Shown here one piece after another: positions 5,846 to 61,968 of a DNA stretch of 64,000 nucleotides (its first letter is position 1; each line of letters begins with the position of its first letter). The notes beneath the pieces were generated by a model that worked only from the letters and a program-made list of their open reading frames with translations, did no database searches and was not told where the DNA came from. The stretch covers positions 42,514-106,513 of the forward strand of contig CAZQVT010000001.1 in NCBI GenBank assembly GCA_964596875.1, given 5' to 3'. Both the position numbers and the translations under genes were made by a program. The stretch comes from an uncultured Candidatus Saccharibacteria bacterium. GTDB taxonomy: Bacteria > Patescibacteriota > Minisyncoccia > Phycocordibacterales > DATDWN01.

Positions 5846-6712
5846 ATGAAAACATTAAAACAAACAGTACTCGAAGCACGAGAGAAAAAGGTTGCAGTCG
5901 GACATTTTAACATTTCTAACTTAGAGGCTTTGTGGGGGATTTTCAAGGCAGCACAAAGTCTAAACGTTCCAGTAATTATCGGAGTTTCAGAAGGCGAAAG
6001 AGATTTTATTGGAGTAAAACAAGTTGTGGCACTGGTGAAAAGTATTCGTGAGGAATACGACTATCCTATATATCTAAATGCTGATCATACTTATTCTTTT
6101 GATAAAGTTAAAGAAGCCATAGATGCTGGTTTTGATTCTGTTATTGTAGACGGCGCAAAACTTTCTTTTGAAGAAAATGTAAAAATGACAAAACAGTGCG
6201 TGGAGTATGCGCGCGCTTGTGGTAGAGAAGTTTTGGTAGAAGCAGAACTTGGTTACATCGGTCAGTCATCAAAAGTTTTAGATGAAATCCCGGAAGGTGT
6301 AATGCTCGACGAAACATCTCTTACAGATCCAGCAAAAGCAAAAGAGTTTGTAGATGCTACAGGTATAGATATGCTCGCTCCTGCAGTAGGGAACTTTCAC
6401 GGCATGCTTCGCTCTGGTGTTGACCCGAAACTAAATATAGAAAGAGTAAAACAAATCGCCGACATAACAGGGATTCCTCTAGTTCTTCATGGTGGTTCAG
6501 GAAACTCTGGAGATGACTTCAAACAGTCTATTGCAAATGGTATCGCTATAGTTCATATAAATACAGAAATTCGTTTAGCATTTAGAGATGGAGTGAAAAA
6601 GTTTCTACAGGAAAACCCAGACGAAGTTGCACCTTACAAATTCCTAAAACCAGGAATGCAGGCAGTACAGGAAGTGGTAACAAATAAGTTGCGACAGTTC
6701 AATAATTTGTAG
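5846..6712 (+). CDS. fba: class II fructose-bisphosphate aldolase
   Basis: VAVGHFNISNLE...LHGGSG...class II FBA/tagatose-bisphosphate aldolase signature; 288 aa. Confidence 0.85.
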   Translation: MKTLKQTVLEAREKKVAVGHFNISNLEALWGIFKAAQSLNVPVIIGVSEGERDFIGVKQVVALVKSIREEYDYPIYLNADHTYSFDKVKEAIDAGFDSVIVDGAKLSFEENVKMTKQCVEYARACGREVLVEAELGYIGQSSKVLDEIPEGVMLDETSLTDPAKAKEFVDATGIDMLAPAVGNFHGMLRSGVDPKLNIERVKQIADITGIPLVLHGGSGNSGDDFKQSIANGIAIVHINTEIRLAFRDGVKKFLQENPDEVAPYKFLKPGMQAVQEVVTNKLRQFNNL

Positions 6713-6731
6713 ACCTCATTCGTTAATAATA

Positions 6732-6846
6732 TTTTTCAGACCACTCACTCTCTCCTGCGGAGAGTTCGCTTATCCTCGGCATCCAACCGTCAAGAACGGG
6801 GTGCCTTGACGGAGCCAAGCTTGGAAGTCTGCGGAGTCTGAAAAAT
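6732..6846. repeat. 115-nt intergenic repeat, copy A (TTTTCAGACC...TCCGTCAAG-aacggggtgc-CTTGACGGA...GCGGAGTC); family R1
   Basis: Near-identical core shared with 22527..22641, including the 9-bp-stem hairpin CCGTCAAGAACGGGGTGCCTTGACGG. Flanked by direct repeat CTCATTCGTTA (6717-6727 / 6856-6866). Confidence 0.7.
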
Positions 6847-6896
6847 ATTACTAACTCATTCGTTACTAAACTCATATTTTAAGAGCGGATTTTAAT

Positions 6897-6925
6897 ATTG
6901 ACATATGTAGTATAATGTGCTATAC
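6897..6925 (+). promoter_or_regulatory. sigma-70-type promoter TTGACA-17-TGcTATACT driving micro-island 1
   Basis: ttgacatatgtagtataatgtgctatact; same architecture as promoters of other islands and of housekeeping genes. Confidence 0.55.
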
Positions 6926-6939
6926 TTATACAAGTTAAA

Positions 6940-6987
6940 TTGTTCCAAGAAAGTGCTTATTTTGAGCCATTTCTTGGAACAATTTCG
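6940..6987 (+). promoter_or_regulatory. perfect 15-bp-stem hairpin in the predicted 5' UTR of island gene 7021..7335
   Basis: AATTGTTCCAAGAAA-gtgcttattttgagccat-TTTCTTGGAACAATT, immediately after predicted TSS and before AGGAGG RBS. Confidence 0.5.
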
Positions 6988-7020
6988 TTAACCGTTCCTT
7001 TCACCGCCCTAGGAGGCAGC

Positions 7021-7335
7021 ATGCAGAACTTCATGGTCAACGTCGTCACCTCGTCGGTTCAGTATCCCGTCGAGAATCCGAGGCTCGATCCGATCTTCGA
7101 CATGAACCAGACCATCCTCCTCCAGTTCGGGCCCTGCTCGAAGGCGGAGGGTGACGCTGTCGCGGACCGCATCAACGCATGGGTTCGTGGTGGCGAAGGT
7201 CGTGGTGCGGCTGAAGCCTTCCGTATTCTGGGACTGGATCAGAGAACGAAAGACGTCTGGGCATCCTGCGACGAAATCCCAACCGCGGGCATCTCGGAAC
7301 TCATCAAAAAGTTCCAGGTGGAAATCCCCGTTTGA
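7021..7335 (+). CDS. hypothetical protein, high-GC island gene (104 aa)
   Basis: AGGAGG RBS 7 nt upstream; GC3-rich codons (gtc/acc/tcg/ggc) unlike host; ORF track 6940..7335 extends upstream but ATG 7021 has the RBS. Confidence 0.5.
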   Translation: MQNFMVNVVTSSVQYPVENPRLDPIFDMNQTILLQFGPCSKAEGDAVADRINAWVRGGEGRGAAEAFRILGLDQRTKDVWASCDEIPTAGISELIKKFQVEIPV

Positions 7336-7526
7336 TCCACGTAACGATCCGTCTCTGGCGCGTCAGCCCAGTATCGTCCGAGGAAGTCATATATTCCTCG
7401 GACTTCCTTCAGAGAATTTAATTCTTAATTAAATGTTCTGAAGGAACGAACAGTTCCATCAAAGTAATTAAACTTTTGATTTCTTTGATGGGACAATTCC
7501 GTCCCTGTTCTTTTAGGAGGTTACCG

Positions 7527-7715
7527 ATGAAAGTTTACATCGTCATGCAGCAGGACCCACACGGAGAGGGTTCGCAGATCATGGGGGTGTACTTGGATAA
7601 GGCGAAAGCCGATGCCGAGGCCGCTGCCATGGTTCACACCATTGCCGTGGACGACGAGGGGCAGGATGTGGAGGTGTGCACTGGAGGTGTGGTAGAGCAT
7701 GAGGTAATCGAGTAA
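7527..7715 (+). CDS. hypothetical small acidic protein, high-GC island gene (62 aa)
   Basis: TTTTAGGAGGttaccgATG RBS; GC3-rich codons; MKVYIVMQQDPHGEG... Confidence 0.45.
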   Translation: MKVYIVMQQDPHGEGSQIMGVYLDKAKADAEAAAMVHTIAVDDEGQDVEVCTGGVVEHEVIE

Positions 7716-7911
7716 GGTAAGTCGTCAGTCTCATTAGGTAACTGACGTAAAAGGGAGTTAAGCTACCCGCCTGCCATGGCAAAGTGCTGATGACCTGAAT
7801 CGGGCGCTCGGAGAGATCCAGCGCCTTTTCGTTTGTAAGAAATACTACTAACAAAATTTTGTTGAGCCATAATTTTTATGGAACATCGCGGAGTGAGTGA
7901 ATAGTGAGTGA

Positions 7912-7978
7912 GAAATGACGCGTATCATTTCGCAAGACCTTGAGCACGAAGTAGCGAAAGGTGTACAGAGTCTGTAAG
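7912..7978 (+). repeat. repeat family R2/R3 copy a: hairpin GAAATGAcgcgtaTCATTTC + GCAAGACCTT ... AAGGTGTACAGAGTCTGTAAG
   Basis: hairpin+GCAAGACCTT shared with 33436.., 43550.., 29685..(rc); AAGGTGTAC...CTGTAAG shared with 33505.., 43618.., 60253.. Confidence 0.55.
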
Positions 7979-8077
7979 ACTCGAAGAAAATTTCTAGCGA
8001 GAAATTATTCTGTTTCCAGAAAAGTTATGGCGAGAAAGAAATTTTGTGTCGCAGATTTAGTTTGATACAATTAAGCA

Positions 8078-9730
8078 ATGAAATATTCACATTCAGAGTT
8101 ACTTGATAAAATAAAAGAAATTTTTCAGGGTGAAGTAAACTCTGACGTAAAAACACTAGATACATATAGTCGTGATGCTAGTTTGCTCGAGGTAAAACCG
8201 GAACTAGTTTTGTTTCCAAAAGATTCAGAAGATATTCAAAAGTTAGTTAAGTTTGTTTCCGAAAACAAGTCTGATAACCCGACACTTTCTATCACAGCAC
8301 GTTCTGCTGGAACTTGTATGTCAGGAGGCTCATTAAACGAGTCTATTATTCTAGATGTCACCAAACATATGGGTGGTATAAAGCAAGTTTCGTCTGAAGA
8401 GGCAACAGTTTTACCTGGAACTTTTTACAGAGACTTTGAAGTGGAGACTTTGAAACATGATGCGATACTGCCAAGTTATACAGCATCAAAAAACTTAAAC
8501 ACTGTGGGTGGCATGGTGGCAAACAACTCTGCAGGTGAAAAAACTTTGGCATACGGAAAAACAGAAAAATATGTAAAAGAACTAAGAGTTATTTTTGCAG
8601 ATGGTAACGAGTATGTGACAAAACCACTAAACAGAGAAGAGTTAGAAAAAAAGATGGCGCAGGGGGACTACGAGGGAAATATTTATAAAAACCTTTGGAA
8701 TCTTATACAGGAAAATGAACATGCAATAAAATACGCTAAACCAGATGTTTCTAAAAACTCTGCTGGATATTATTTGTGGAATGTTTGGGATGGAGAAACT
8801 TTTGATATCAACAAACTTATAACAGGTTCACAGGGAACACTTTGCATAATAACTGACATCAAGTTCAAACTAGTTCCTATAAAAAAGAAATCAAAATTAT
8901 TTGTTATTTTTTTGCGCAACCTAGATCATTTAAGTGAGTTGGTAAACGAAGTTCTAACAACAAACCCAGAATCTCTAGAGTCATATGACGACAGTACGAT
9001 GAAACTTGCTTTCAAGTTTTTCCCATCCATGCTTAAAACTATGAAAGTTCATAACTTTGTAAAACTAATGTTTGGATTTTTGCCAGAAGCAGGGATGATA
9101 CTAACTGGGGGAATACCAAAACTCATTTTGCTTGTAGAATTTTCTGACAATGACGAAAAAGAGATAGATAAAAAAATGTATGAACTTCAAAGAAAGATTG
9201 CTCATTTTGGTTTGAAGACTCGTATGTCACGTTCTGAAGAAGAATCTAGCAAGTACTGGACTATAAGGCGGGAGAGTTTCAACCTTTTGCGACAACACGT
9301 AAAAGGGGCGCGAACTGCGCCATTTATAGATGATGTGGTAGTAAAACCACAATATCTTCCAGAGTTTCTACCAAAGATGCGAAAAATTTTGGATGAACAC
9401 AAACTCGTTTACACCATTGCAGGGCATGCAGGAAATGGAAACTTTCATATTATCCCTCTTATGAATATGAAAGATCCTAAAAATGCAGAACTTATCCCAA
9501 TAGTTTCCGACAAAATATATAGTCTAGTAAAAGAATACCGAGGTTCTATAGATGCGGAACACAATGACGGTATTATACGTACTCCATATCTAGAGCAAAT
9601 GTTTGGTCATGAAATGGTCCAGATTTTCAAAAAAACTAAAGACATTTTTGACCCACAAAACATCTTTAACCCAGGCAAAAAGGTGGGCGGGACTAAACAA
9701 TACATGATAGACCACATTGTGAAAAACTAA
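8078..9730 (+). CDS. FAD-binding oxidoreductase (FAD-linked oxidase/GlcD-like, PCMH-type FAD domain)
   Basis: N-terminal FAD_binding_4-like region (VLFPKDSEDIQKLVKFVSENK...ARSAGTCMSGGS) and C-terminal FAD-oxidase_C-like HxxNGN..H motifs; 550 aa. Confidence 0.65.
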   Translation: MKYSHSELLDKIKEIFQGEVNSDVKTLDTYSRDASLLEVKPELVLFPKDSEDIQKLVKFVSENKSDNPTLSITARSAGTCMSGGSLNESIILDVTKHMGGIKQVSSEEATVLPGTFYRDFEVETLKHDAILPSYTASKNLNTVGGMVANNSAGEKTLAYGKTEKYVKELRVIFADGNEYVTKPLNREELEKKMAQGDYEGNIYKNLWNLIQENEHAIKYAKPDVSKNSAGYYLWNVWDGETFDINKLITGSQGTLCIITDIKFKLVPIKKKSKLFVIFLRNLDHLSELVNEVLTTNPESLESYDDSTMKLAFKFFPSMLKTMKVHNFVKLMFGFLPEAGMILTGGIPKLILLVEFSDNDEKEIDKKMYELQRKIAHFGLKTRMSRSEEESSKYWTIRRESFNLLRQHVKGARTAPFIDDVVVKPQYLPEFLPKMRKILDEHKLVYTIAGHAGNGNFHIIPLMNMKDPKNAELIPIVSDKIYSLVKEYRGSIDAEHNDGIIRTPYLEQMFGHEMVQIFKKTKDIFDPQNIFNPGKKVGGTKQYMIDHIVKN

Positions 9731-9771
9731 TAAAATCACCCCATCTGCGTTGTTGCTGTTCAATTTTGCTC

Positions 9772-9810
9772 ACTCACCTTACTATTTGTAAGGCTCGTTC
9801 TCAAAATCTC
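9772..9810 (+). repeat. R4 hairpin module CTCACCTTACtattTGTAAGGCTCGTTCTC downstream of FAD oxidoreductase
   Basis: CCTTAC/GTAAGG inverted repeat plus conserved flanks also at 927.., 25286.., 42759.., 46266.. Confidence 0.5.
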
Positions 9811-9894
9811 CAGCGCCTAGCACCTAGGGTAATTTAATTAGTTTTTAGTTTTGGAGGGGTTGATTTTATACAGTATTTAGTCTATACTAGCCGA

Positions 9895-10536
9895 ATGACA
9901 ATTTTAGAAGCTGAAATCAGAGATAAATCAGTAGACAGTGTTGCACTTAGAAACGAGGGCAAAATTCCTGCTGTTTTCTATGGTAAAAAGACAGAATCTA
10001 CTCCTATAACTCTATCTAGAAATGACTTTATTTCTGCGTGGAACAAAGAAGGTGAGTCAGGAGTTGTAACTATTAAAACATCTAAAGGAACTGTAGATAC
10101 TCTTATAAAAGATATAGATATTGACCCAGTATCTGACATGGTGAGACACGTAGATTTTTATGTATTCGAAAAAGGAAAGAAAGTTGAACTAGATGTTCCT
10201 CTAGAATTCGTGGGAGTTTCTCCAGCAGTAAAGGACCTTTCTGGAAACTTAGTTAAGGCTATGCACGAGATCAAGATTTCAGCAGATCCTACAAACATTC
10301 CTCACGAAATCACAGTAGATATTTCTTCACTTGTTGATTTTGATAGTAAAATCGTTGCAGGTGATCTAAAACTTCCTGCAGGAGTTACTCTTATTGAAAA
10401 TGCAGAAGAGGTAGTTGCAGCAGTTGCAAGACAAAAAGAAGAAACAGACGAACCTTCAGCCCCAGTTGATTTGTCTTCAATAGAGGTAGAGAAGAAGGGT
10501 AAGAAAGAGGAAGAAGGAGGAGAATCAGCAGAATAA
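9895..10536 (+). CDS. rplY: 50S ribosomal protein L25/general stress protein Ctc
   Basis: MTILEAEIRDK...LRNEGKIPAVFYGKK is classic bL25; C-terminal E/K-rich tail. Confidence 0.8.
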   Translation: MTILEAEIRDKSVDSVALRNEGKIPAVFYGKKTESTPITLSRNDFISAWNKEGESGVVTIKTSKGTVDTLIKDIDIDPVSDMVRHVDFYVFEKGKKVELDVPLEFVGVSPAVKDLSGNLVKAMHEIKISADPTNIPHEITVDISSLVDFDSKIVAGDLKLPAGVTLIENAEEVVAAVARQKEETDEPSAPVDLSSIEVEKKGKKEEEGGESAE

Positions 10537-10607
10537 TTACAAAAAGTCCCCGCAAGGGGATTTTTTGTAAGTAAGGTTATGAATTCCCGTCTAAAAATAG
10601 TATAATA

Positions 10608-11981
10608 ATGAGCATGCTTAAACGGTTATTTTTCTATGCATTTTTTGTTTTAGTTTGTGTTTTTGGCATGCATACTGTAAAAGTTGCGGCTATTACTCCT
10701 GAAGAACAAGAAGCAATTTGGAAGGCTGAACTGGCGCAGACAGAGGCCGACATAGCTAAATGGCAGGATATTCTAAATGGCACAAAAGCCAATACAAAGT
10801 CTCTTCAAAATGAGGCTGCAATACTGAACGCTAAAATAAAACAAGCTCAGGCAACTATCAAACAAAAAACCATTAATATTGAACAGATAGGTAAACAGAT
10901 AAAAGATAAACAGAAGACAATTTTAAGTTTGGAACAGCGAATAGAAAAAGGTCATGAATCCCTAGCGCAACTAATAAGGAAAACAAATGAGATAGACGAG
11001 TATTCCCTTCCAGAAGTGATACTTGGAAACCAAGATATTTCAGAATTTTTTTCAGATGTAGATTCATTTCAGTCAATAAAAAAAGATTTACAAGTTTTGT
11101 TTAATGAAATACGCGATAATAAAAAAACAACAGAAAAAGAAAAAGAAGCACTAGATAAGGCGCAGGATAAAGAAGAGGATACAAAAGCTGCCGTAGAGTC
11201 ACAAAAAAAAGAAGTAGAGAAAAATGAAAAGGAGAAACAGTATCTAATACAGGTAAATAAAACACAAGAAAAAACATACGAGCAGGTTATATCTGAAAGA
11301 CAAAAGAAAGCCGGGGAAATACGGGCAAAATTGTTTAACTTTGCTGGTGGTGCCGGACCAATACCTTTTGGTGATGCAGTGGCTTATGCACAAGAAGCGT
11401 CTGTTGTAACTGGAGTTAGACCTGCACTAATACTTGCTACTCTGAAGCATGAAACTAATCTAGGTCAAAATATTGGTTCTTGTATTATTACTAATCTTGA
11501 GACTGGTGATGGAATATTTTCAAAAACTCAGAAGCCTGTTAAGGGTATCGTAAAGGCTGACAGAGACATTGCTCCTTTTCTAGATATCACATCTAGACTT
11601 GGTTTAGACTATGCGAAAACTATAGTTTCTTGTCCGATTGCTGGAGGTGGTTGGGGTGGAGGAATGGGACCTTCGCAGTTTCAACCATCTACTTGGATAG
11701 GTATTGAATCCAGAGTCGCAAACATGCTAGGTGTTAGTATTGCTAACCCATTTAGACCAAAAGATGCTATTTTTGCTACGGCACTATTTTTGAAAGATTT
11801 GGGCGCTGGTACCCAGGTGTATTCTGACGAACAAAATGCGGCTTGTAGGTACAACTCTGGAAGAAAATGCGCACAAGCACCGGCATTTAGTAAGGCCTAC
11901 GGTAAAAACATAATGAGTTTGGCATCTGGTATTCAGGCAGATATAGACTACATAGCTCAGTACGGAGTTTCCAGAAGATAA
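10608..11981 (+). CDS. secreted coiled-coil protein with C-terminal lytic-transglycosylase-like (SLT_2/MltB-like) domain
   Basis: N-terminal signal/TM, long heptad-rich region, C-terminal GGGMGPSQFQPSTW resembling the MltB AMGPMQFMP motif. Confidence 0.45.
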   Translation: MSMLKRLFFYAFFVLVCVFGMHTVKVAAITPEEQEAIWKAELAQTEADIAKWQDILNGTKANTKSLQNEAAILNAKIKQAQATIKQKTINIEQIGKQIKDKQKTILSLEQRIEKGHESLAQLIRKTNEIDEYSLPEVILGNQDISEFFSDVDSFQSIKKDLQVLFNEIRDNKKTTEKEKEALDKAQDKEEDTKAAVESQKKEVEKNEKEKQYLIQVNKTQEKTYEQVISERQKKAGEIRAKLFNFAGGAGPIPFGDAVAYAQEASVVTGVRPALILATLKHETNLGQNIGSCIITNLETGDGIFSKTQKPVKGIVKADRDIAPFLDITSRLGLDYAKTIVSCPIAGGGWGGGMGPSQFQPSTWIGIESRVANMLGVSIANPFRPKDAIFATALFLKDLGAGTQVYSDEQNAACRYNSGRKCAQAPAFSKAYGKNIMSLASGIQADIDYIAQYGVSRR

Positions 11982-22508: not shown

Positions 22509-22526
22509 GGGCTTTTTCACTAAAAA

Positions 22527-22641
22527 TTTTTTCAGACCGCTCGTTCCGCCTGCGCTTCACTCACTTTGTCCTCAACCCAAATCCGTCAAGAACGGGGTGC
22601 CTTGACGGAACCAAGCTTTGGGTTTGCGGAGTCATCAAAAA
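22527..22641. repeat. 115-nt intergenic repeat, copy B (family R1)
   Basis: TTTTTCAGACCgctc...ATCCGTCAAGAACGGGGTGCCTTGACGGAACCAAGCTTTGGGTTTGCGGAGTC; aligns along full length with 6732..6846. Confidence 0.7.
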
Positions 22642-22742: not shown

Positions 22743-23012
22743 TTAGTTACTCGCATGGTATGAGGTGTAGAGTGGTGGGTTTCTGCAGATCTCGAACCTC
22801 ATCTCGAGATCCTGGTACTTCTTGTTCAGGTTGTTATACTTTCCTCCGATGTCTTCAAGGATGCCTCGTTGCTGGTCCAGCACCACACTAAGTGCTTCTG
22901 AGCTTTGCTTGAGCTCCTTGATCTCTTCGAGGTTGGGGTACGACCACGCAGTGACACTTACTCCCACTGCGATTCCGAGACTGAACACGAGGCCTACTGC
23001 GAGGTATCTCAT
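22743..23012 (-). CDS. small secreted/membrane-anchored coiled-coil protein, GC-enriched island gene (89 aa)
   Basis: GGAGaaagtgtccATG RBS; signal-like MRYLAVGLVFSLGIAVGV; own TTGACA promoter at ~23045-23075 (minus) and hairpin terminator 22700-22725; ORF track extends to 23060 but internal start has the RBS. Confidence 0.45.
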   Translation of the reverse strand: MRYLAVGLVFSLGIAVGVSVTAWSYPNLEEIKELKQSSEALSVVLDQQRGILEDIGGKYNNLNKKYQDLEMRFEICRNPPLYTSYHASN

Positions 23013-23144
23013 GGACACTTTCTCCATGCAATACTGTAATGTATTTTGTGTAATTGTCAATATGGTATTGTACTAAATTTGCTTGTTTGTACCCTTAAAA
23101 TTTGCTATAATTTGCAAGTAAAATTAACTAAAAATACTTTAAAT

Positions 23145-28883: not shown

Positions 28884-28956
28884 AGCACAACACTAGGCTT
28901 TTCTGCGATACATTGACATAATCCATAAATGGTTTATTGTGTTTTAGGGGGGGCGC

Positions 28957-37286: not shown

Positions 37287-39542
37287 ATGTATCTAAAGTC
37301 TATTGAACTAAATGGTTTCAAATCTTTCGCTAAAAAAAGCGAACTATCTTTCAATACAAAAGTTTCTGCGATAGTTGGCCCAAATGGTTCGGGCAAGTCA
37401 AATGTTGCCGAAGCCTTTCGTTTTGTTTTGGGTGAACAGTCTATAAAAAGTTTGCGTGGTAAAAAAGGTGAGGACCTTATTTTTAATGGAGCAGGTGACC
37501 TGCCTAGAGCAAACAGGGCTTCGGTAAAAGTAGTTTTCGACAACTCCACAAAGTTTTTACCTGTGGACTTTGAAACTGTCACAGTAGAACGTGTGGTGCA
37601 CCGGGATTCTGTAAACGAGTACCTCATAAACGGCTCCCAGGTCAGACTAAAAGACGTTGTAGAACTTTTGGCATCTGCACATATTGGCTCTAGTGGTCAC
37701 CATATTATTTCCCAGGGTGAGGCAGACAGAATACTGAACGTTAGTCCAAAAGAAAGAAAAAATATGATAGAGGATGCGCTCGGCCTAAAAATGTATCAGT
37801 ACAAAAAAATAGAAAGTCAGAAGAAACTTTTGAAAACAAAAGAAAATATTGAAAAAGTAGAATCTCTTCGCAGAGAAATAATGCCTCATATAAAGTTTCT
37901 CAAAAAGCAGGTAGAAAAAGTAGAAAAGGCTATTCAAATGAAAGAGGAGTTGCAGAAAGAGGCTTTAGAGTATTGTAAGCGTGAAGACGACTACATAAAG
38001 AAAACAGAACAAAAACTGACTACAGAAAAGACACCTCTAACTCATAAACAAAAAGAGTTGGATGATGAACTTTCTCATGCAAAAAGTATTCTAGAGAATG
38101 CAAAAAACAAAGACGGCCTGTCTGACAGACTTATAACTTTGGAAAAAGACTTGCACAGAGCCAGAGATGAAAAAGACGAACTTTTCAGAAACTTTGGAAG
38201 ACTAGATGGAGAAATAAACTCTCTGGTAAAGATGGTCAGAAAACAAGAAGAAGTCGCTCGTTCCATGGAACACAAAACTGTGACCCTGGTTTCTGTGGAG
38301 GAGCTTTCTGTAAAAATAGAAGACAAAATAAAAAAAGCAAAAGAGACAAATGATGTTGGGGTTCTAAGTAGCGCTCTGGATGAAGTGTTTGGACTACTTA
38401 CTGACTTTATCGACTACAACAAAGACAAAGTTGAAAACACCCTTATTGCAGACGTGCAAAAAGATATAGAGCATCTACAAGTTTCTAAAAAAGAACTAGA
38501 AGTAAAACTAGAGAAGGTAAACAACGAAGAAAAAGAACTTTCTGCAGAGTACAGTAAACTTAAAAACGAAATAGAAAAAGAGAAAGATTCAAACCGAGAT
38601 GCGGAAAAGGCCGTGTTTAGAATCATGGCAGAGTCTGGCGAGATACGTTCAAAACTTCATGACATTGCTTTGCACGAGGAAAACCTGAAACTAGTGAAGG
38701 AGGATTTTAAAAGAGAACTTACGGAACTTGGGGTTCTTTTGGGCACACATGTTTTGCAGTTTGGAAACGTAGAGATAGAGAACCTAGACGAAGACAGACA
38801 TTTGCAGGAAGAAAGAAGAAAAAGAATAGAAAAAATAAAAATACGACTAGAGGACTCTGGAGGAGTGCTTGGTACAGAGATACTAAAAGAATACACAGAT
38901 GCCACAGAGCGTGATGCATTTTTGGAAAAAGAACTAGCAGATCTAGAAAACTCGGCTACATCTCTGGGAGTACTCATAAGTGACTTGGATGTAAAACTTG
39001 GTACAGAGTTTAAAAATGGTGTAGAAAAAATCAACAACCAGTTCAAGGAATACTTTGCGATGATGTTTGGTGGAGGTGAAGCAAAACTAGAAGTAGCGGT
39101 TCCAGTAAAAAAGAAAAAAGATACAGATATTGTTTTGGAAGATAGTGAAGGCGAAGAGAATTATGAAGCAGAGGAAACAGAAAGTAGTGAGGGTATAGAC
39201 ATAGAAGTTTCTTTGCCAAAGAAAAAAGTTCGAGGACTTATGATGCTTTCTGGTGGTGAAAGAGCACTGACTTCTATTGCACTTTTGTTTGCTATTTCTC
39301 AGGTAAACCCACCACCGTTTATTATTCTAGACGAAACAGACGCAGCGCTGGATGAAGCAAACTCTAAAAAGTATGCAGATATGATAGAGAATCTTTCGAA
39401 GTATTCTCAGCTTATTGTGATAACTCATAACAGAGAAACAATGTCGCGTGCAGGAATACTTTACGGAGTGACTATGGGTGCGGGCGGGGGGTCAAAACTA
39501 CTTAGTGTTGCCTTTGAGGATGCCGTTGCCGTAGCAAAGTAA
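37287..39542 (+). CDS. smc: chromosome partition protein SMC (short form, ~751 aa)
   Basis: MYLKSIELNGFKSFAKK...GPNGSGKSN Walker A, long coiled coils, C-terminal LSGGERALTSIALLFAI signature + Walker B ILDETDAALD. Confidence 0.8.
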   Translation: MYLKSIELNGFKSFAKKSELSFNTKVSAIVGPNGSGKSNVAEAFRFVLGEQSIKSLRGKKGEDLIFNGAGDLPRANRASVKVVFDNSTKFLPVDFETVTVERVVHRDSVNEYLINGSQVRLKDVVELLASAHIGSSGHHIISQGEADRILNVSPKERKNMIEDALGLKMYQYKKIESQKKLLKTKENIEKVESLRREIMPHIKFLKKQVEKVEKAIQMKEELQKEALEYCKREDDYIKKTEQKLTTEKTPLTHKQKELDDELSHAKSILENAKNKDGLSDRLITLEKDLHRARDEKDELFRNFGRLDGEINSLVKMVRKQEEVARSMEHKTVTLVSVEELSVKIEDKIKKAKETNDVGVLSSALDEVFGLLTDFIDYNKDKVENTLIADVQKDIEHLQVSKKELEVKLEKVNNEEKELSAEYSKLKNEIEKEKDSNRDAEKAVFRIMAESGEIRSKLHDIALHEENLKLVKEDFKRELTELGVLLGTHVLQFGNVEIENLDEDRHLQEERRKRIEKIKIRLEDSGGVLGTEILKEYTDATERDAFLEKELADLENSATSLGVLISDLDVKLGTEFKNGVEKINNQFKEYFAMMFGGGEAKLEVAVPVKKKKDTDIVLEDSEGEENYEAEETESSEGIDIEVSLPKKKVRGLMMLSGGERALTSIALLFAISQVNPPPFIILDETDAALDEANSKKYADMIENLSKYSQLIVITHNRETMSRAGILYGVTMGAGGGSKLLSVAFEDAVAVAK

Positions 39543-39561
39543 AAAGTTTTATAATTTTGAG

Positions 39562-39598
39562 TTGCAAAAAGGGCGGTCGCTGTTGCGCCGCCCTTCTG
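39562..39598 (-). terminator. rho-independent terminator (minus strand) for island gene 39619..39864
   Basis: rc GAAGGGCGGCGCAACAGCGACCGCCCTTTTTGCAAC. Confidence 0.6.
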
Positions 39599-39618
39599 GC
39601 TGTGTGAGCTCGCCACGT

Positions 39619-39864
39619 TCAGTGGGCGAGTGACAGTCGGAAGATCCGAACGGGGAAGAGCATCGGCTCGGTGTCACTTCTCATGACTGCCGGGCCGAAG
39701 GGTGTTCTTGAGATGACGACGCTATCGCCACACTGATCTCGCACGACTGCGCGTACGAACAGGCATCTGTCCGCCCCACAGACGATCTCGACCGCTCCGA
39801 AGGGGTGAATCTGATTGACTACATCCCCCGGTGACAGTGTTACCGCTCCTTCGGGCATGCTCAC
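39619..39864 (-). CDS. hypothetical protein, high-GC island gene (81 aa; GTG start)
   Basis: TTGGAGGcccaatGTG RBS; GC3-rich; TTGCAA-17-TGcATAAT promoter at 39870-39905 (minus). Confidence 0.4.
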   Translation of the reverse strand: MSMPEGAVTLSPGDVVNQIHPFGAVEIVCGADRCLFVRAVVRDQCGDSVVISRTPFGPAVMRSDTEPMLFPVRIFRLSLAH

Positions 39865-39916
39865 ATTGGGCCTCCAACGAAGTATTATGCAATAGTATCA
39901 AATATATTGCAAGTAA

Positions 39917-43529: not shown

Positions 43530-43549
43530 AAAGTTTTGTTTTCCGGTGA

Positions 43550-43639
43550 GAAGTGATGTTATCACTTCGCAAGACCTTGCCAAATTTTTCTAGAACGAAG
43601 TGATTAGAAAAATAGACAAGGTGTACTGTTCCTGTAAGG
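43550..43639 (+). repeat. repeat family R2/R3 copy c: GAAGTGATgttaTCACTTC-GCAAGACCTT ... AAGGTGTACTGTTCCTGTAAGG
   Basis: shared modules with copies a,b,d,e. Confidence 0.6.
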
Positions 43640-43732
43640 AAATCATAAAAAAATAGAGGAGTGGAAACTAGGTAAAGGCAAAAAATAACTCCTACAGAAA
43701 AACCCGCGAGTGCGACAGAGTTTCTCTGCCGC

Positions 43733-43912
43733 CTACGCGGGCTGGAGCTCGTTGACCTTTCTGGTCTTGAGCCGTGCTTTTGCTTGTTTTCTTTTGACCT
43801 CACTCATCATCCTTTCTTGCTGTATCTCTGCGATGATTGCGTCGAGTCTGCCGAGCATTCGTGCTCCCCAGAGTCTTTCGCGGATGATCTGCTCTTTTGC
43901 TTGTCGAGTCAT
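43733..43912 (-). CDS. small highly basic coiled-coil protein, high-GC island gene (59 aa; below ORF-track threshold)
   Basis: AAGGAGGccatATG RBS, TTGACA-17-TATATT promoter 43925-43960 (minus), hairpin terminator 43700-43735; MTRQAKEQIIRERLWGARMLGRLDAIIAEIQQERMMSEVKRKQAKARLKTRKVNELQPA. Confidence 0.45.
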   Translation of the reverse strand: MTRQAKEQIIRERLWGARMLGRLDAIIAEIQQERMMSEVKRKQAKARLKTRKVNELQPA

Positions 43913-44037
43913 ATGGCCTCCTTATCCACCTGCAATTAATATACAGTAAATACTGTATATTGTCAAATTTGAGAAAGGCCGCGCTCCTCTCGGTTCGCGG
44001 CCTTGTTCGGGTGGGGGACTTTCTCGTCCCCGCCGGT

Positions 44038-44421
44038 TTACTTCTTTCGCTTCTTCCTCGCTTTCTGCTTGCGCGCACTTCCGATAGTAGTGCTGCTACC
44101 CAGCCACCGTTTGGGACTGAGTTTGGCGAGTTCCATCACGCACATGAAGGCGTAGATGGTGACATCGCCCACATGCTTGAACGAGTCGAGGTCCCAACAC
44201 TTGACCGCCTTGGCCATCGCCCCGACTGTCTTGTACTGGGAGTAGTGTCTCTTCACCACCTTGTTCAGGCGGGTGACGGCGGAGGTGTGTCCGCACTCGA
44301 GCTTCTGGTTCACCTGCCGGCGAGTCAGTTTGAACTCTCCGATGGTTAGAACCACCGCGTTCTGTCTGTCGGCGTAGGCCTTGCTTACCGGATGTCTGAA
44401 ACCCTCACTCTTCCTCGGCAT
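44038..44421 (-). CDS. hypothetical basic protein with KKRKK C-terminus, high-GC island gene (127 aa)
   Basis: CGGAGGGcatcaacgaATG RBS; consensus promoter TTGACA-aatatgttgtatgtgc-TATAAT at 44430-44480 (minus); GC3-rich. Confidence 0.45.
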   Translation of the reverse strand: MPRKSEGFRHPVSKAYADRQNAVVLTIGEFKLTRRQVNQKLECGHTSAVTRLNKVVKRHYSQYKTVGAMAKAVKCWDLDSFKHVGDVTIYAFMCVMELAKLSPKRWLGSSTTIGSARKQKARKKRKK

Positions 44422-44524
44422 TCGTTGATGCCCTCCGATTAGTATTATAGCACATACAACATATTTGTCAAGTATAAAATATAACAAATTGTTTTGAATT
44501 TTTTATATCTGTTACAATGTTTCA

Positions 44525-47342: not shown

Positions 47343-47425
47343 TAAAATATATAAAGTGTGTTATTGTAACTCTCGCTACTTTTACGACATAAAGTCGATA
47401 CTTGCTAGCATGGAGTTCTTTCTCA

Positions 47426-48295
47426 ATGATGAAGCGTCTGCTCCTCCCCGTCTTCACCGCGATCCTCATGATGCCGTCGCTCGGCTTCGCTCAGGGCACC
47501 GTCGTCTTCTCGAACCTGCCGTCGCCCACGCCGGGCAACATCCCGTCCTTGGGCTACCAGTGCTGCTCGGTCTCCGAGTTCGGCGACCGCGTGCACCTCG
47601 AGGCCGACACGCCCCGGCGTGCCAGCAGCGCGACGGTTCTGATGTCGTCGTGGTCGCTCCACTCGAACTACCCGACGATGTCCGCGGCCGGCTACAAGCA
47701 CCCGATCACGCTCGCGGTCTACGCGAACGACGCGGCGGCCCTGGCGCATTCGCCCTTGGCAACCGTGACCCAGATGATGGACATCCCGTGGCGGCCCGAG
47801 GCCGACCCGACCTGTCCCGGCGGGACGGCATGGCGCGCAACGAACGGCCAGTGCTACAACGGCATGGCCTTCACGCTCACGTTCGACCTGCGCAGTCTGA
47901 ACCTCACGCTCCCGGACGAGTTCGTCTGGGGTGTGGCGTACAACACGCAGACCTGGGGCTACAACCCGCTCGGCGTCGCCGGCCCGTACGAGTCGCTCAA
48001 CGTCGGCACGACCGCTTCGGCGCCGTCAGTCGGCGTCGATGTGGATCCGGACGTGGCGTACGTCAACTACGCCGTGGCGGGGTTCTACTCCGACCTCGGC
48101 GCGGGTGGCACGAACACCTTCCGCGCCGATACGGCATGGACGGGATTCGCTCCCTCGGCGGAGTTCACCACGGTTGCCGTTCCGGCGACCACCGGTGAGT
48201 GCAAGAACGGAGCCTGGCAGAACCTGGTCCGGCGTGACTTCACGCCGTTCAAGAACCAGGGAGCCTGCGTCTCCTACGTCAACACCGGCAAGTAG
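47426..48295 (+). CDS. secreted hypothetical protein, very high-GC island gene (~65% GC, 289 aa)
   Basis: signal peptide MMKRLLLPVFTAILMMPSLGFAQG; extreme GC3 bias (ccg/ggc/acg/gtc); followed by CGGCGGTCCtcagGGACCGCCGCTTTTTTAT terminator. Confidence 0.5.
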   Translation: MMKRLLLPVFTAILMMPSLGFAQGTVVFSNLPSPTPGNIPSLGYQCCSVSEFGDRVHLEADTPRRASSATVLMSSWSLHSNYPTMSAAGYKHPITLAVYANDAAALAHSPLATVTQMMDIPWRPEADPTCPGGTAWRATNGQCYNGMAFTLTFDLRSLNLTLPDEFVWGVAYNTQTWGYNPLGVAGPYESLNVGTTASAPSVGVDVDPDVAYVNYAVAGFYSDLGAGGTNTFRADTAWTGFAPSAEFTTVAVPATTGECKNGAWQNLVRRDFTPFKNQGACVSYVNTGK

Positions 48296-48321
48296 CCGGC
48301 AACAACACCAGTCATCGGGAA

Positions 48322-48357
48322 GATGTCCGGCGGTCCTCAGGGACCGCCGCTTTTTTA
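48322..48357 (+). terminator. rho-independent terminator
   Basis: GTCCGGCGGTCCTCAGGGACCGCCGCTTTTTTATAAA. Confidence 0.7.
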
Positions 48358-48401
48358 TAAAATAGGAAATGAATTTGTGTTGTATTTATTATATAGAACC
48401 C

Positions 48402-53838: not shown

Positions 53839-54453
53839 ATGAAAATTGAAAAGAGAAGTATTGCGGAAAATATCTACTTGCTGAGGTTTGAAAATCAGAC
53901 GGAACTTGCCTCTACTTTTTTGCGGTTTCAGGAACACTACGAGTCGCCAGAGTTTCGGGGAAAGTTTTTTACATTAGACGAATACAAAAAATGGTACACA
54001 CAAGCTAGGGGAGACTTTACCTACTATAGCGACTGGTCTGGTTTCAATATTCCTTCACATATCCTAAAGCCTTTTCTGGAAGGAAAGTTTGACCCACTTA
54101 CGGACAAGGAGAAAATTTTCCTAGAATATTTTACCGACGTGCCTCACCCTTTTTATATTATTGGACTTTCGGGGGATACGGATACTGAAAAAACAAAACT
54201 AACTCTAGATCATGAAACAGCGCATGGGATGTACTACACCAAACCAGAATACAGAAAAAAAGTAGATGAGGTTTTGAAAAAATATGACCTTTCAAAAATA
54301 AAAGAATGGCTACGTTCAATGAGCGGTTACCATGAGTCTGTTTTGGACGACGAGTCGCATGCCTATACCCTTTTTGGTTTTGAAAAGATAATAGAAAAAA
54401 TCCCCGAAGGTATGAAGGAGGAACTAGACGCCATTTTCCAGGAGTTTAAATAG
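53839..54453 (+). CDS. hypothetical protein with HExxH (DHETAHGMYY) putative metallopeptidase motif
   Basis: 204 aa; 1-nt spacing from upstream gene (operon). Confidence 0.3.
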   Translation: MKIEKRSIAENIYLLRFENQTELASTFLRFQEHYESPEFRGKFFTLDEYKKWYTQARGDFTYYSDWSGFNIPSHILKPFLEGKFDPLTDKEKIFLEYFTDVPHPFYIIGLSGDTDTEKTKLTLDHETAHGMYYTKPEYRKKVDEVLKKYDLSKIKEWLRSMSGYHESVLDDESHAYTLFGFEKIIEKIPEGMKEELDAIFQEFK

Positions 54454-54502
54454 GTTTGATTTTGGGGAAGTTTTGTGGGTAAATACTGTGTGGGGAGGTG
54501 GC

Positions 54503-54721
54503 ATGGGGCTCATCGCTAATCTCGTTTCGTGGTCTGAGGCTGTGTCGTGGGTGTGGCAGGTGTTGCCCGGATGGGCACAGAAGTACCTGATCTTCCACAT
54601 CTGCTGTGTGGCGGCGTGTACCATCTGGGTCTGTAACAGCTACCGAACGACTCGCAGGTTGCCTCAGAACTACAAAGTTCTGGGTGACCCGTACAAGGTG
54701 CAGCTTCCGAACGTGAAGTAG
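54503..54721 (+). CDS. small hydrophobic protein, high-GC island gene (72 aa)
   Basis: GGGGAGGtggcATG RBS; ORF track start 54473 lacks RBS; GC-rich versus flanks. Confidence 0.4.
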   Translation: MGLIANLVSWSEAVSWVWQVLPGWAQKYLIFHICCVAACTIWVCNSYRTTRRLPQNYKVLGDPYKVQLPNVK

Positions 54722-55005
54722 TCTCGGCCTCGACTGTTGTTGTGCAAAAGGTGTGTGTCGTTACGGCACCGCCTTTTTGTTATACAAAAATAAAAAGTGA
54801 TATAATCTAGATATGACAAACAGAACAACAAAAAATAGTTTTACTACATTAAACACAGGTAGCAAAAAAAGTGGAAAGAGTATGAGTATAAAACCGAAAA
54901 TGAAAGGTAAGGCACCACGACCAAGCAGAACTAACGGATAAAATAAAAACTTGTGATATAATATTTTGTATAAATTATTAAAATTATTATTTAACTAAAT
55001 AAAAT

Positions 55006-56831: not shown

Positions 56832-56864
56832 AAAACCTCGCAGATATGCGAGGTTTTTGTTTGC
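56832..56864. terminator. bidirectional terminator AAAAACCTCGCAGATATGCGAGGTTTTTG
   Basis: perfect stem CCTCGCA/TGCGAGG with A and T runs. Confidence 0.7.
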
Positions 56865-56936
56865 AAAATTTTGTATAAAGAAAAAGCCGGCGGTCCCCAA
56901 CGAATGGGGACCCCGACTTGTGCGCTTGTTGCCGAC

Positions 56937-57143
56937 CTACTGGCTCGCCTCGACCTTGTACTCGGCCGTCAGGCCACGGACGTAGCCGAGCTGGGCCGAG
57001 ACGGCGTTGAGGCGGGGGACGCTCGGGTCCTTCCACGGCTCGTTGCCGAACATCGGCGGCTCGACGGCCCCCATGGCGACGATCGCGGGATCGACGATGG
57101 CGGGCATTCCGAAGTGCAACTGACGGCTCTGCTGCTTTGACAT
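56937..57143 (-). CDS. hypothetical protein, high-GC island gene (68 aa), divergent from lexA promoter
   Basis: AAGGAGtgacaccgcATG RBS; promoter TTGACA-gatgcagtatagtgtgc-TAAGAT at 57165-57195 (minus); hairpin terminator 56880-56915. Confidence 0.45.
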   Translation of the reverse strand: MSKQQSRQLHFGMPAIVDPAIVAMGAVEPPMFGNEPWKDPSVPRLNAVSAQLGYVRGLTAEYKVEASQ

Positions 57144-57257
57144 GCGGTGTCACTCCTTAACGTACATCTTAGCACACTATACTGCATCTGTCAAGTATAA
57201 AATAAAGAGAAAATTTTATGAAATGAAACTTTTCCACAGTTTTATTTTGCTGTTTAT

Positions 57258-57542: not shown

Positions 57543-58124
57543 ATGTCTACAGAAAAATATTCATCATATCGCGACAAAATACTTTCTTTCTATCGTACTA
57601 ACAGACGCATGCCTGGGTATAACGAGATCATGCAGATGGTTGGCTTCAAATCCAAGAATGCGGTTTATAAACTCATCAACAAACTAGTTGATGACGAAGT
57701 TTTGGAAAAGGACAGTAACGGAAAACTAACTCCTCTTAAAATTTTTGGAGAAACTCCACTACTTGGTTTGGTAGAGGCTGGTATCCCAACTACAGTAGAC
57801 CAGGACAACACAGAGTCACTAAACCTGGATGAGTATCTTATAGGTCGCAATAAAAATTCTACATATCTTTTAGAAGTAAAAGGCGACTCTATGATAGATG
57901 AAGGTATTCGTGAAGGTGACTTGGTTTTGGTAGAACGCAGAGGCGACCCAAAGGATGGCGACATAGTTATTGCCGAAGTAGATGGTGGTTGGACAATGAA
58001 GTATTTCAAAAAGAAAGGGAATACTGTTTACCTAAAACCTGCAAACAAAAACTATGCGCCCATTTATCCAGCATATGATTTGAAAATTGCGGCAATTGTT
58101 CGCGGAGTAATAAGGAAATATTAA
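57543..58124 (+). CDS. lexA: LexA repressor (S24 peptidase)
   Basis: N-terminal wHTH, C-terminal VKGDSMIDEGIREGDLVLV (Ser nucleophile) and TMKYF (Lys general base); 193 aa. Confidence 0.75.
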   Translation: MSTEKYSSYRDKILSFYRTNRRMPGYNEIMQMVGFKSKNAVYKLINKLVDDEVLEKDSNGKLTPLKIFGETPLLGLVEAGIPTTVDQDNTESLNLDEYLIGRNKNSTYLLEVKGDSMIDEGIREGDLVLVERRGDPKDGDIVIAEVDGGWTMKYFKKKGNTVYLKPANKNYAPIYPAYDLKIAAIVRGVIRKY

Positions 58125-58264
58125 ATCTCTTTTTCCTCATAACTTTTTTGTAAACAGAATAAATTTCTGCTGAAATTTTTCTTCGCGCTCATCTCTACAC
58201 GGGTTCCGCGATGTTCCAAAAAAATTATGACTCAATGAGATTTAATTTGTGTTAAAATTGTTTA

Positions 58265-60915: not shown

Positions 60916-61314
60916 ATGATAACAATTCTTATCGCAGCGGTAGCAGCATTTGTTTTCGGAGCATTTTGGTTCACAGTGCTTTTTGGTAAGGAGTGGGCAA
61001 GACTTAACGACTTTAATCCTGCTAGTGACGAAAGAGCAAAACAACTAGGCATGGCAAAGCCTTTGTTTGCAAACTTTCTTTCAAATGTGCTAGTGGCTAC
61101 AGTTTTCTACTACATGATAGACCAGATGTTGGTTTACTCATATGCAGGACTACTACGAGTAGTGTTTATTGTGTGGCTTGGCTTTAGTTTTCCAATATTT
61201 GCCAATGCAGCAATATGGGAAAGAAAGAGCTGGAAACTGGTTGCAATTAACTCTGCGCAAAACCTATTGGCGCTGGCTATTATTTCTGGAATCATTTTCA
61301 AAATGCATTACTAG
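60916..61314 (+). CDS. hypothetical membrane protein (4 TM)
   Basis: 132-aa hydrophobic ORF. Confidence 0.4.
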   Translation: MITILIAAVAAFVFGAFWFTVLFGKEWARLNDFNPASDERAKQLGMAKPLFANFLSNVLVATVFYYMIDQMLVYSYAGLLRVVFIVWLGFSFPIFANAAIWERKSWKLVAINSAQNLLALAIISGIIFKMHY

Positions 61315-61393
61315 GTCCCAGACTATATACTATATATAAGCAGAGCCGCCCCGAAGTCCTTGCTAGGACCTCGGGGCGTGTTCGTTGGGGGAC

Positions 61394-61588
61394 TCAGATC
61401 CTCCCCATCAGGATATCGCGTTGAATGAAGGCGTGCCGCACAGCGGTATTCAGGTTCCTTCCGAAACCGATGACAACTCGGTCCATCTTGTCGGTGAACC
61501 TGAAGTACCACCGCATGTTAGGTCCCTGGGGAGAGTTTCCCAGGTACCCGTAGTCACTCTTGGCTATCACTTCTTTGTTTACAACCAC
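61394..61588 (-). CDS. hypothetical protein, high-GC island gene (64 aa; GTG start)
   Basis: CTGGAGGGAGGtgagGTG RBS; GC-rich versus flanks; promoter-like TTGACT-17-TAGTCT at 61600-61640 (minus). Confidence 0.35.
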   Translation of the reverse strand: MVVNKEVIAKSDYGYLGNSPQGPNMRWYFRFTDKMDRVVIGFGRNLNTAVRHAFIQRDILMGRI

Positions 61589-61968
61589 CTCACCTCCCTC
61601 CAGCGCTCTGTAAAAAAGACTACCTATTTAAGGGCGGGGAGTCAAACCCGACTTTTTGGCCAGAAGTCAAACACAGTGTTAATAGTATGTGGATAAGTTT
61701 GTTGACTTTTGTTGACAAAAGTTAACCCTTGACATATACTCTTAGTTGCTTCACATGATTGAGTTTTGGCAGGGGCAAGATAGAATCTAGGGTTTATTCG
61801 GGGTTTAATAGTTCTATACTATTTTGCAGTTCAATCGCTAACAGTTTAAGAGTTTCAAAATAGCCATCCAATGCGGGGATGGTTCGTTTTGTTTGTCTTA
61901 AACTGAGGGTGACTGAAAGCACCTCGAGGTTTTCTTTTATTAATAGTAGGTGGGGTAAATATTATTTT

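Follow-up and report, generated by a model that had tools for sequence, protein, structure and literature searches.

The closest described counterparts of the unit reported here are phage morons, which carry their own promoter and/or terminator, have a deviant GC content and occupy insertion hot spots where different morons may be found (PMC2920897). For bacteria of the candidate phyla radiation (CPR), whose genomes are tiny and streamlined and whose gain of accessory genes is poorly understood, published surveys describe only islands of at least 2.7 kb and prophages (PMC12455944). The present analysis concerns a GC-rich micro-island, named island 1, in a stretch of contig CAZQVT010000001.1 (GenBank assembly GCA_964596875.1) of 64,000 nt, hereafter the window. 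All plain coordinates refer to the whole window, and L-numbers denote loci from related genomes. Island 1 lies between the genes of a class II fructose-bisphosphate aldolase and an FAD-linked oxidase, and it is best explained, with a probability of about 0.6, as a moron-like, horizontally acquired promoter-to-terminator unit that stems from a mosaic pool of cassettes exchanged at conserved linkers.

When species-representative genomes were scanned for the aldolase protein, 44 loci were obtained, mostly from Parcubacteria and Zambryskibacteria-like metagenome-assembled genomes; among the loci used, L001 is an independent Logan assembly of run SRR12712864, L055 is CAYXWL010000001.1 and L052 is Ga0207138_1013. 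Island 1 is an insertion relative to empty sites. The distance from the aldolase stop to the oxidase start is 1-2 nt in L002 (TAAaATG) and L003 (TAAaaATG) versus 1365 nt in the window. In L024, which is more distant, the tblastn match of the aldolase ends at 6828 and that of the FAD oxidase (query residues 20-547) begins at 6830. The original prediction had placed the inserted DNA, about 870 bp, between two repeats; measured against the empty site, the insert is longer and fills the entire gap between the two genes, where several elements are nested. The left junction is not an assembly artefact or a chimera, since L001 assembles the identical junction independently, being the same as the window across the aldolase, the promoter and the ORF1 junction, as far as the start of ORF2 (ORF, open reading frame).

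The same junction is filled in another way in L004, by an insert of 730 nt; L004 and the empty L003 are sisters, with 95.8% nucleotide identity between their aldolase genes. The L004 insert has a palindromic repeat (element A) and a structured 3' element in common with island 1, and it differs in the promoter spacer, the 5' untranslated region (UTR) and the ORF. Further distinct GC-rich cassettes occupy the gap downstream of the aldolase in L011 and L014, and yet another is common to L005 and L069; counted over the other genomes, five cargoes different from that of island 1 reside in this gap. A second site of this kind is the gap between prfA and rpsB, which measures 51 nt in the window and in L014. 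In L005 it contains a 5'-UTR hairpin (hp5) and a 3' element like those of island 1 around an unrelated 137-aa ORF. In L069, which is syntenic with the window, it contains the -10 box, hp5, the leader and an ORF1 homologue as in island 1, within flanks that match those of L005 around a different cargo. In L008 it carries still another cargo and has only the upstream terminator and the -35 region in common with L005. Thus, one cargo is found at different chromosomal sites and different cargo at one site; the block of about 400 nt that comprises the -10 box, hp5, leader and ORF1 is intact at two housekeeping junctions, those of the window and L069. Among related genomes the aldolase-downstream gap and the prfA/rpsB gap (L005, L008, L069, L017) are recurrent hot spots.

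Island 1 was predicted to be a complete expression unit, and the promoter, the hairpins, two ORFs led by Shine-Dalgarno (SD) sequences and the terminator are indeed all present, with coordinates slightly shifted (Table 1). The sigma-70 promoter agrees with the consensus at 11 of 12 positions, has the TG of an extended -10 box and is the top-scoring site within 6600-8200. Homology to cassettes at other sites begins at about the -10 box, and homology to the L004 cassette (same site, different cargo) stops in the spacer just past the -35 box. The hairpin hp5 starts about 3-4 nt past the predicted transcription start and is formed by the arms AAATTGTTCCAAGAAA (6937-6952) and TTTCTTGGAACAATTT (6970-6985); it is perfect, as had been noticed, with a stem of 16 bp and not 15. 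In its 91-nt context it folds at -29.2 kcal/mol (z = -5.6), and none of 200 shuffled sequences folded as well. Four copies were found in four genomes (the window, L005, L061 and L069) behind equivalent promoters; in their alignment 96.9% of the cells are paired, with two pairs altered on both sides and seven sense-strand G.U cells. The leader of ORF1 is kept together with ORF1 in L061 and L069, behind differing upstream hairpins. At the other end, the terminator stem with its TTTTCGTTT(G/A) tail recurs in L004, L005 and L069, and a variant of the tail, TTTTCTTTTG, is present in L052. Beyond the terminator, the motif TTGATACAAT precedes the ATG of the FAD oxidase, and it lies at an equal distance from the ATG in L004 (about 2158-2179) and in the distant L052, a locus of 50% GC (reverse strand, about 8949-8973).

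Both ORFs are coding, and they are the only supported ORFs within 6713-8077. ORF1 has seven homologues with identities of 45-79% and a strongly conserved core, and its differences from them fall mostly on the third codon position (15, 6 and 31 at positions 1, 2 and 3). ORF2 belongs to the Pfam family DUF7336 (27.8 bits against a gathering cut-off of 25 bits, E = 2.3e-6) and also matches PHROG 3002 (E = 2.2e-7). The homologues and third-position bias of ORF1 and the score of ORF2 above the DUF7336 cut-off establish both as genuine genes. The AlphaFold2 (AF2) model of ORF1 has a pLDDT of 76.6 and a pTM of 0.70. The codon composition of island 1 is foreign: the GC content is 0.51-0.58 in the core of the island versus 0.39 for the window mean, and at third codon positions (GC3) it reaches 0.71 in ORF1 and 0.70 in ORF2 versus 0.21-0.31 in five host genes, which bears out the earlier description of the island as high-GC DNA.

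The two genes occur apart in other genomes and have different neighbours there. ORF1 homologues are members of 3- to 6-gene arrays in L055, L061 and L062, and an ORF2 homologue is part of a 5-gene array in L064. A spacer precedes each ORF of these arrays and is composed of a terminator-like GC hairpin, an AT-rich hairpin of 15-22 bp, a short hairpin, GTTCTTT and an SD sequence; the long AT-rich hairpins are present in all 20 spacers examined, with near-perfect stems of differing sequence. In the window, 191 nt of structured spacer separate ORF1 from ORF2, and they consist of two units, X and Y. The AT-rich hairpin of unit X, which had been recognised from the start, has 20 pairs and belongs to a 117-nt stretch (7336-7452) that folds at z = -5.7; the GC hairpin of the same unit had been overlooked, as had the long AT-rich and the GGGAC..GTCCC hairpins of unit Y. 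The first 115 nt of unit X (7336-7450) are 84% identical to the sequence 3' of the ORF1 homologues in L055-L059, and L061 matches the part 7343-7447 at 85%. Unit Y (fold z = -3.6) has homologous sequence 5' of the L064 homologue of ORF2 and in spacers of L053, L055, L061 and L062. Units X and Y abut directly, and their border marks where two cassettes were joined. The points at which homology between genomes is lost belong to the conserved non-coding linkers: the promoter spacer, the SD, the spacers and the terminator. Some of the arrays belong to relatives of 50-53% GC (L052, L064), where they are compositionally inconspicuous, and such genomes, or mobile elements in them, may plausibly have acted as donors.

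The structured element on the 3' side of ORF2 is highly conserved, with eight copies in eight genomes, a core of about 80 nt, 32 invariant bases and unrelated neighbouring ORFs. Its first hairpin, P1, is the CGTCAGT/ACTGACG pair already seen in the first reading; in full it reads CGTCAGT-CTCATTAGGTA-ACTGACG, with a 7-bp stem and an 11-nt loop, and 24 of its 25 positions are invariant (the remaining one is R). The helices P2 and P3 covary, five pairs being changed on both sides, which was matched by one of 500 shuffles, and the heptamer CTGATGA is invariant across the copies. The hairpins are structurally conserved, and those of the 3' element with covariation. The P1 loop UCAUUAG could possibly pair with CUGAUGA as a pseudoknot, or alternatively CGUCAG with CUGAUG; the bases are invariant in either case. 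In L005, L049, L053 and L064 the element reaches about 60 nt further upstream and includes another covarying stem. It is located either in the middle of an array (L053, L064) or just ahead of the terminator, and cassettes of L008, L011, L014 and L069 are without it. Neither the window nor 30 loci yielded additional, more divergent copies to a covariance model. When searched against Rfam at the gathering threshold, the whole window gave nothing but one tRNA elsewhere; with E up to 10 allowed, the island region gave miRNA and snoRNA matches at chance level only, and the 3' elements of six loci had no match. Hammerhead and pistol ribozymes, to which the strings CUGAUGA and UUAAA/UUAAGC might point, were rejected, the stem order and the GAAA being missing and Rfam giving no match. 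The 3' element is a candidate for a new structured RNA or for a protein recognition site.

The proposed mechanism is as follows. Related genomes would have in common a pool of small-gene cassettes and arrays of mosaic make-up, in which the GC-rich ORFs are interchangeable cargo and the conserved linkers are the consensus extended -10 promoter, the AT-rich hairpin spacers with GTTCTTT and SD, the 3' element of about 80 nt and the terminator tailed by TTTTCGTTT. Cargo would be swapped by homologous recombination between these linkers, as in the modular exchange of phages, and one such unit would have entered the otherwise tight aldolase/FAD-oxidase junction of a Parcubacteria (CPR) chromosome. 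Host RNA polymerase would start at about 6933, and the two small acidic proteins may be accessory proteins of the mobile-element type, as suggested by DUF7336 and PHROG 3002. The extended -10 box TTGATACAAT might serve as a leaderless promoter that re-expresses the FAD oxidase, which would be cut off from its operon by the insertion. A 5'-terminal stem-loop shields mRNA from 5'-end-dependent decay in ompA-type leaders, and in the T7 early operon RNase III sites lie between the cistrons. By analogy, hp5 and the spacer hairpins of 15-22 bp may act in the RNA as stabilisers or as processing sites of the RNase III type, and such processing would split the transcript into separate stable cistrons, like that of T7. 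The stem length of 15-22 bp in 20 of 20 spacers corresponds to about two helical turns, the idealised RNase III substrate having 22 bp (PMC3867540).

Table 1. Coordinates of island 1, its parts, its flanking genes and related GC-rich islands and cassettes
Feature	Position	Strand	Remarks
Class II fructose-bisphosphate aldolase	5846-6712		left flank of island 1
Island 1 insert	6713..8077		1365 nt between aldolase stop and FAD-oxidase start; nest of several elements
Element A	6715..6868	+	structured palindrome directly after the aldolase stop; about 150 nt; fold z = -4.1
Sigma-70 promoter	6898..6926	+	TTGACA 6898-6903, 17 nt, TG-n-TATACT 6921-6926
hp5, 5'-UTR hairpin	6937..6985	+	perfect 16-bp stem, 17-nt loop
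ORF1 leader and SD	6996..7020	+	leader GTTCCTTTCACCGCCCT; AGGAGG 7011-7016
ORF1	7021..7335	+	104 aa; pI 4.7; conserved family, no Pfam match
Spacer unit X	7336..7457	+	travels with ORF1, downstream of it
Hairpins of unit X	7355-7371; 7376-7403; 7404-7446; 7443-7457		CTGG..CCAG; GC hairpin; AT-rich; GGAAC..GTTCC
Spacer unit Y	7453..7526	+	travels with ORF2, upstream of it
Parts of unit Y	7453-7494; 7490-7505; 7515-7520		AT-rich hairpin; GGGAC..GTCCC, then GTTCTTTT; SD AGGAGG
ORF2	7527..7715	+	62 aa; pI 4.3; SD AGGAGG 7515-7520
3' structured element	7723..7798	+	P1 7723-7747, P2 7753-7768, P3 about 7769-7780, CTGATGA 7787-7793
Intrinsic terminator	7803..7835	+	GGCGCT..AGCGCC, then TTTTCGTTTG
Element B	7847..8052	+	imperfect palindrome of about 135 nt; contains the right edge of the original prediction
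Element C	7893-7981		R2/R3 repeat of the original prediction; interrupts the apex of element B
Extended -10 box TTGATACAAT	8062..8071	+	6 nt ahead of the FAD-oxidase ATG; read from sequence
FAD-linked oxidase	8078-9730		right flank of island 1
Other GC-rich micro-islands	28921-29760; 36648-37244; 39430-39897; 43655-44471; 47384-48374		in the window
Other GC-rich micro-islands, continued	54452-54786; 56848-57193; 61302-61621; 22745-23060		in the window
Aldolase-downstream cassettes	L005 6868-7446; L014 6868-7336; L011 3653-4752; L069 4428-4972		positions in the respective loci

Besides the cassette, the insert includes three dispersed palindromic repeats, A, B and C. An 11-nt direct repeat, CTCATTCGTTA, brackets element A (6715-6725 and 6855-6865), which has the closing stem TAATATTTTTCAGAC/GTCTGAAAAATATTA and the inner hairpin CCGTCAAG..CTTGACGG and gave no match in Rfam. 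Other copies are located in the window (22521-22641), L004 (1450-1600), L012 (3204-3305) and L002 (4426-4478); both copies of the window directly follow the stop codon of a host gene and stand beside a GC-rich cassette. Element B, which has terminal inverted repeats AAAATCTC/GAGATTTT, is missing from the L004 insert and occurs elsewhere without an adjoining cassette (window 58123-58250 on the reverse strand, L002 twice, L006, L008 and L012); it is a later, separate insertion. Its part 7847-7900 folds no better than shuffled sequence (z = -1.0). Element C (GCAAGACCTTGAG ... AAAGGTGTACAG..CTGTAAG) is the R2/R3 copy that had been reported to follow the right edge of the island; it is present, and in the window as in L012 it interrupts the apex of element B. 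In the window, element B itself contains that edge. Sequences related to parts of element C stand behind two other islands (29681-29718 and 43546-43579) and also constitute the D1 repeats (33464, 43577 and 60212).

The direct repeats at the edges were the ground for the original prediction that site-specific recombination or transposition had integrated the micro-island and that the two TTGAGCCAT..TGGAACA copies were att sites or a target duplication. Island DNA is indeed inserted, and the similarity of the edges is non-random: the pattern TTGAGYCAT-N(0-20)-TGGAACA, chosen after two of its copies were seen, matches at 6962, 7862 and 58212 (reverse-complemented), three times versus 0.01 expected, and the pairwise local alignment of the edges has a score of 21, reached by 0.6% of random 70-mers from the window. 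However, the copies are parts of two unlike structures: the left one consists of the loop and the 3' arm of hp5, one half of a conserved hairpin that follows the promoter, and the right one forms the left arm of element B, an independent repeat that occurs without cassettes. The homologous cassettes of L004, L005 and L069 have no right-hand copy, the empty junctions of L002 and L003 hold no single copy of the motif, and a pattern search of all loci found it only in L001 and once in L005. The edge copies are therefore neither att sites nor target duplications. The true insert extends beyond them on both sides, and none of the ORFs checked in 6713-8077 encodes an integrase or a transposase, so this explanation is refuted for practical purposes; repeat-like edges, tempting as they are, do not imply att sites. 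Two small ORFs behind one strong promoter might also suggest a toxin-antitoxin or similar addiction module. Such a pair can be set aside as extremely improbable, because ORF1 and ORF2 occur separately elsewhere; in addition, a long structured spacer divides them in the window, both proteins are acidic and no toxin-antitoxin or defence family was matched, PADLOC included. A very unlikely reading is that of a rolling-circle (HUH-type) or otherwise trans-mobilised non-autonomous element, whose 3' hairpin would be the nick or termination site for an enzyme encoded elsewhere. A hairpin kept at 24 of 25 positions in eight genomes beside unrelated ORFs has the pattern of a protein recognition hairpin, and target duplications were not seen, but the 3' element may lie within an array and not at its end, several cassettes do without it, P2 and P3 covary as RNA helices, and no HUH gene was seen in any locus table.

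The arrays themselves invite comparison with integrons, in which case the structured spacers might be single-stranded DNA recombination sites analogous to attC and used by a dedicated recombinase. This would accord with same-strand small ORFs behind one promoter, each beside an imperfect palindrome and shuffled between genomes, and site specificity is also hinted at by the reuse of identical intergenic sites and by the clean empty site in a sister genome. The spacers make an integron-like system quite unlikely, however: RYYYAAC/GTTRRRY cores are missing from all 20, the conserved 3' flank GTTCTTT recurs as a direct and not an inverted repeat, the stems have no conserved extrahelical bases, and sense-strand G.U pairs suit RNA better. 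Moreover, single cassettes have a promoter of their own and are dispersed among many intergenic sites. No Phage_integrase match adjoins any array in the Pfam tables of L055-L071, and the only recombinase near one is a large serine recombinase about 1.6 kb beyond the end of the L055 array, no tyrosine recombinase being present beside the arrays that have such a table. The same recombinase could speak for decay, in which case the islands would be what is left of degraded prophages or integrative elements and not independently moving units; it is of host-like GC and the array lies in a larger region of 45-55% GC, ORF2 belongs to the phage-linked family PHROG 3002, and the architecture resembles a phage early operon. 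This is unlikely too, given that the unit is bounded exactly by promoter and terminator without gene fragments or pseudogenes, that the 400-nt block is intact at two different housekeeping junctions, that several unrelated cargoes occupy the same two gaps and that no relatives were found in phages or IMG/VR.

Several results weigh against the moron-like cassette as well. Neither protein was assigned by PADLOC, which among ten island ORFs reported nothing save one chance-level helix-turn-helix (HTH) match, and a fold search of PDB and BFVD with the ORF1 model returned no match at E <= 0.001. A tblastn search of INPHARED with both ORFs and two protein scans of IMG/VR found no relatives, the two conserved RNA motifs gave no match in two DNA pattern scans of IMG/VR, and no cassette unit sits in a recognisable phage, the flanks of the island being genes for aldolase, PfkB, FAD oxidase and L25. 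The case for exchange is drawn solely from the positions of the breakpoints, no recombination event having been observed, and the X/Y junction is irregular: only CC is common to both sides, which points to illegitimate joining and not to homologous exchange. The covariation of hp5 is not significant with four sequences (reached by 119 of 500 shuffles), and over all hairpins the mismatches (three G.T versus one A.C) are too few to tell an RNA from a DNA hairpin. The copies of element A in the window and L004 have an identity of 89-90%, against about 82.5% for the flanking genes, while L003, the sister of L004, is cleanly empty; this suggests repeated site-specific gain or precise loss, beyond simple homologous exchange, and leaves room for a site-specific mechanism. 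Parcubacteria might possess a dedicated and hitherto undescribed cassette-exchange system, based on a recombinase or RNA-templated, that moves and swaps expression-ready small genes at the invariant folded elements (the spacer hairpins and the 3' element) as an integron analogue without IntI, and this is possible, if on the whole still improbable. The 3' element would in that case represent either a recognition site or a structured RNA of a new class.

The window is a chromosome segment of about 39% GC with a gene content typical for a CPR bacterium, including a split transketolase, PfkB, the class II fructose-bisphosphate aldolase, the FAD-linked oxidase and ribosomal protein L25. It contains at least nine further GC-rich micro-islands (Table 1), and modules common to these and island 1 were not found. 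The micro-island 43655-44471 has two cistrons on the minus strand, the first behind TTGACA-16-TATAAT with TG and the second preceded by another TTGACA beside a palindromic operator-like sequence. Elsewhere, 28957-29160 encodes a weak HTH_17 match, and 47402-48295 is a 297-aa ORF of 66% GC. Observations on the array loci may be added. In L055 (1-10372) the five-gene array with the ORF1 homologue lies inside the wider region of 45-55% GC, next to genes of a TrmB regulator and a DUF6624 protein, with a GNAT acetyltransferase and the large serine recombinase, both of host-like GC, further downstream; this region may be a larger integrated element. The plus strand of L052 carries at least ten tRNA genes in about 4 kb (6605-10733), on a contig of 50% GC that also has a single-ORF cassette with a 3' element. 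In L061, a structured region (1270-1540) with an apparently tRNA-like 3' end on the minus strand is located directly 5' of the array promoter, which hints at a tRNA-adjacent insertion site.

Island 1 appears to be a member of a widespread class of moron-like mosaic cassettes in Parcubacteria chromosomes, a class that is undescribed as far as found; a literature search on DUF7336, and on CPR together with cassettes or attC, returned nothing relevant. Such cassettes would represent a finer-grained form of gene flow, in which expression-ready units of less than 1 kb and of foreign codon composition, held together by conserved folded linkers, are inserted into a few intergenic hot spots and swapped there. 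If this is general, it could account for many GC-rich micro-islands in CPR genomes, the conserved non-coding motifs might serve as probes for the accessory genes of uncultured CPR bacteria, and one new candidate structured RNA would be added.

Several known systems resemble parts of this arrangement. Elements A, B and C are nested palindromic multicopy intergenic repeats of 120-150 nt, like the Correia elements of Neisseria, repetitive extragenic palindromes and bacterial interspersed mosaic elements (REP/BIME) and miniature inverted-repeat transposable elements (MITEs), although they adjoin the cassette and are not the cassette itself, and neither a transposase nor a target-duplication rule is established for them. 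T7-type early operons likewise have a strong host-type promoter, several small genes and intercistronic hairpins of 15-22 bp, and as in ompA-type stabilisers the hairpin of island 1 lies within 3-4 nt of the predicted 5' end; unlike the T7 sites, the spacer stems are AT-rich, nearly perfect and without internal loops, the host is a CPR bacterium and the putative sites are known from sequence. Integron cassettes with attC, including clusters of attC sites lacking integron-integrases (CALIN), also form shuffled same-strand arrays of small ORFs with imperfect palindromes and an upstream promoter, whereas the cassettes described here show no intI near the arrays in the Pfam tables, have no R and L cores and no extrahelical bases, carry a promoter and terminator of their own, are found at many intergenic sites and not on one platform, and have hairpins with sense-strand G.U pairs. 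In lambdoid modular exchange (the Susskind-Botstein model), as in the cassettes, short conserved non-coding sequences border unrelated coding modules and hold the breakpoints; in the cassettes, however, each module is one small ORF, the linkers are folded elements and bacterial chromosomes serve as the replicons. The nearest parallel is with phage morons in the sense of Hendrix and Juhala. Of the four features of morons considered, island 1 has three, namely transcription signals of its own, a deviant GC content and a presence that varies at hot spots, and a location in a phage is the fourth. Like morons, it is an autonomous promoter-gene-terminator unit of deviant base composition between adjacent genes, absent from close relatives, and different units occur at each hot spot and one unit in different genomic backgrounds. 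Unlike morons, it lies between housekeeping genes of a CPR chromosome and not in a phage or prophage, and units of its kind have conserved structured 5', spacer and 3' linkers and are also assembled into multi-gene arrays.

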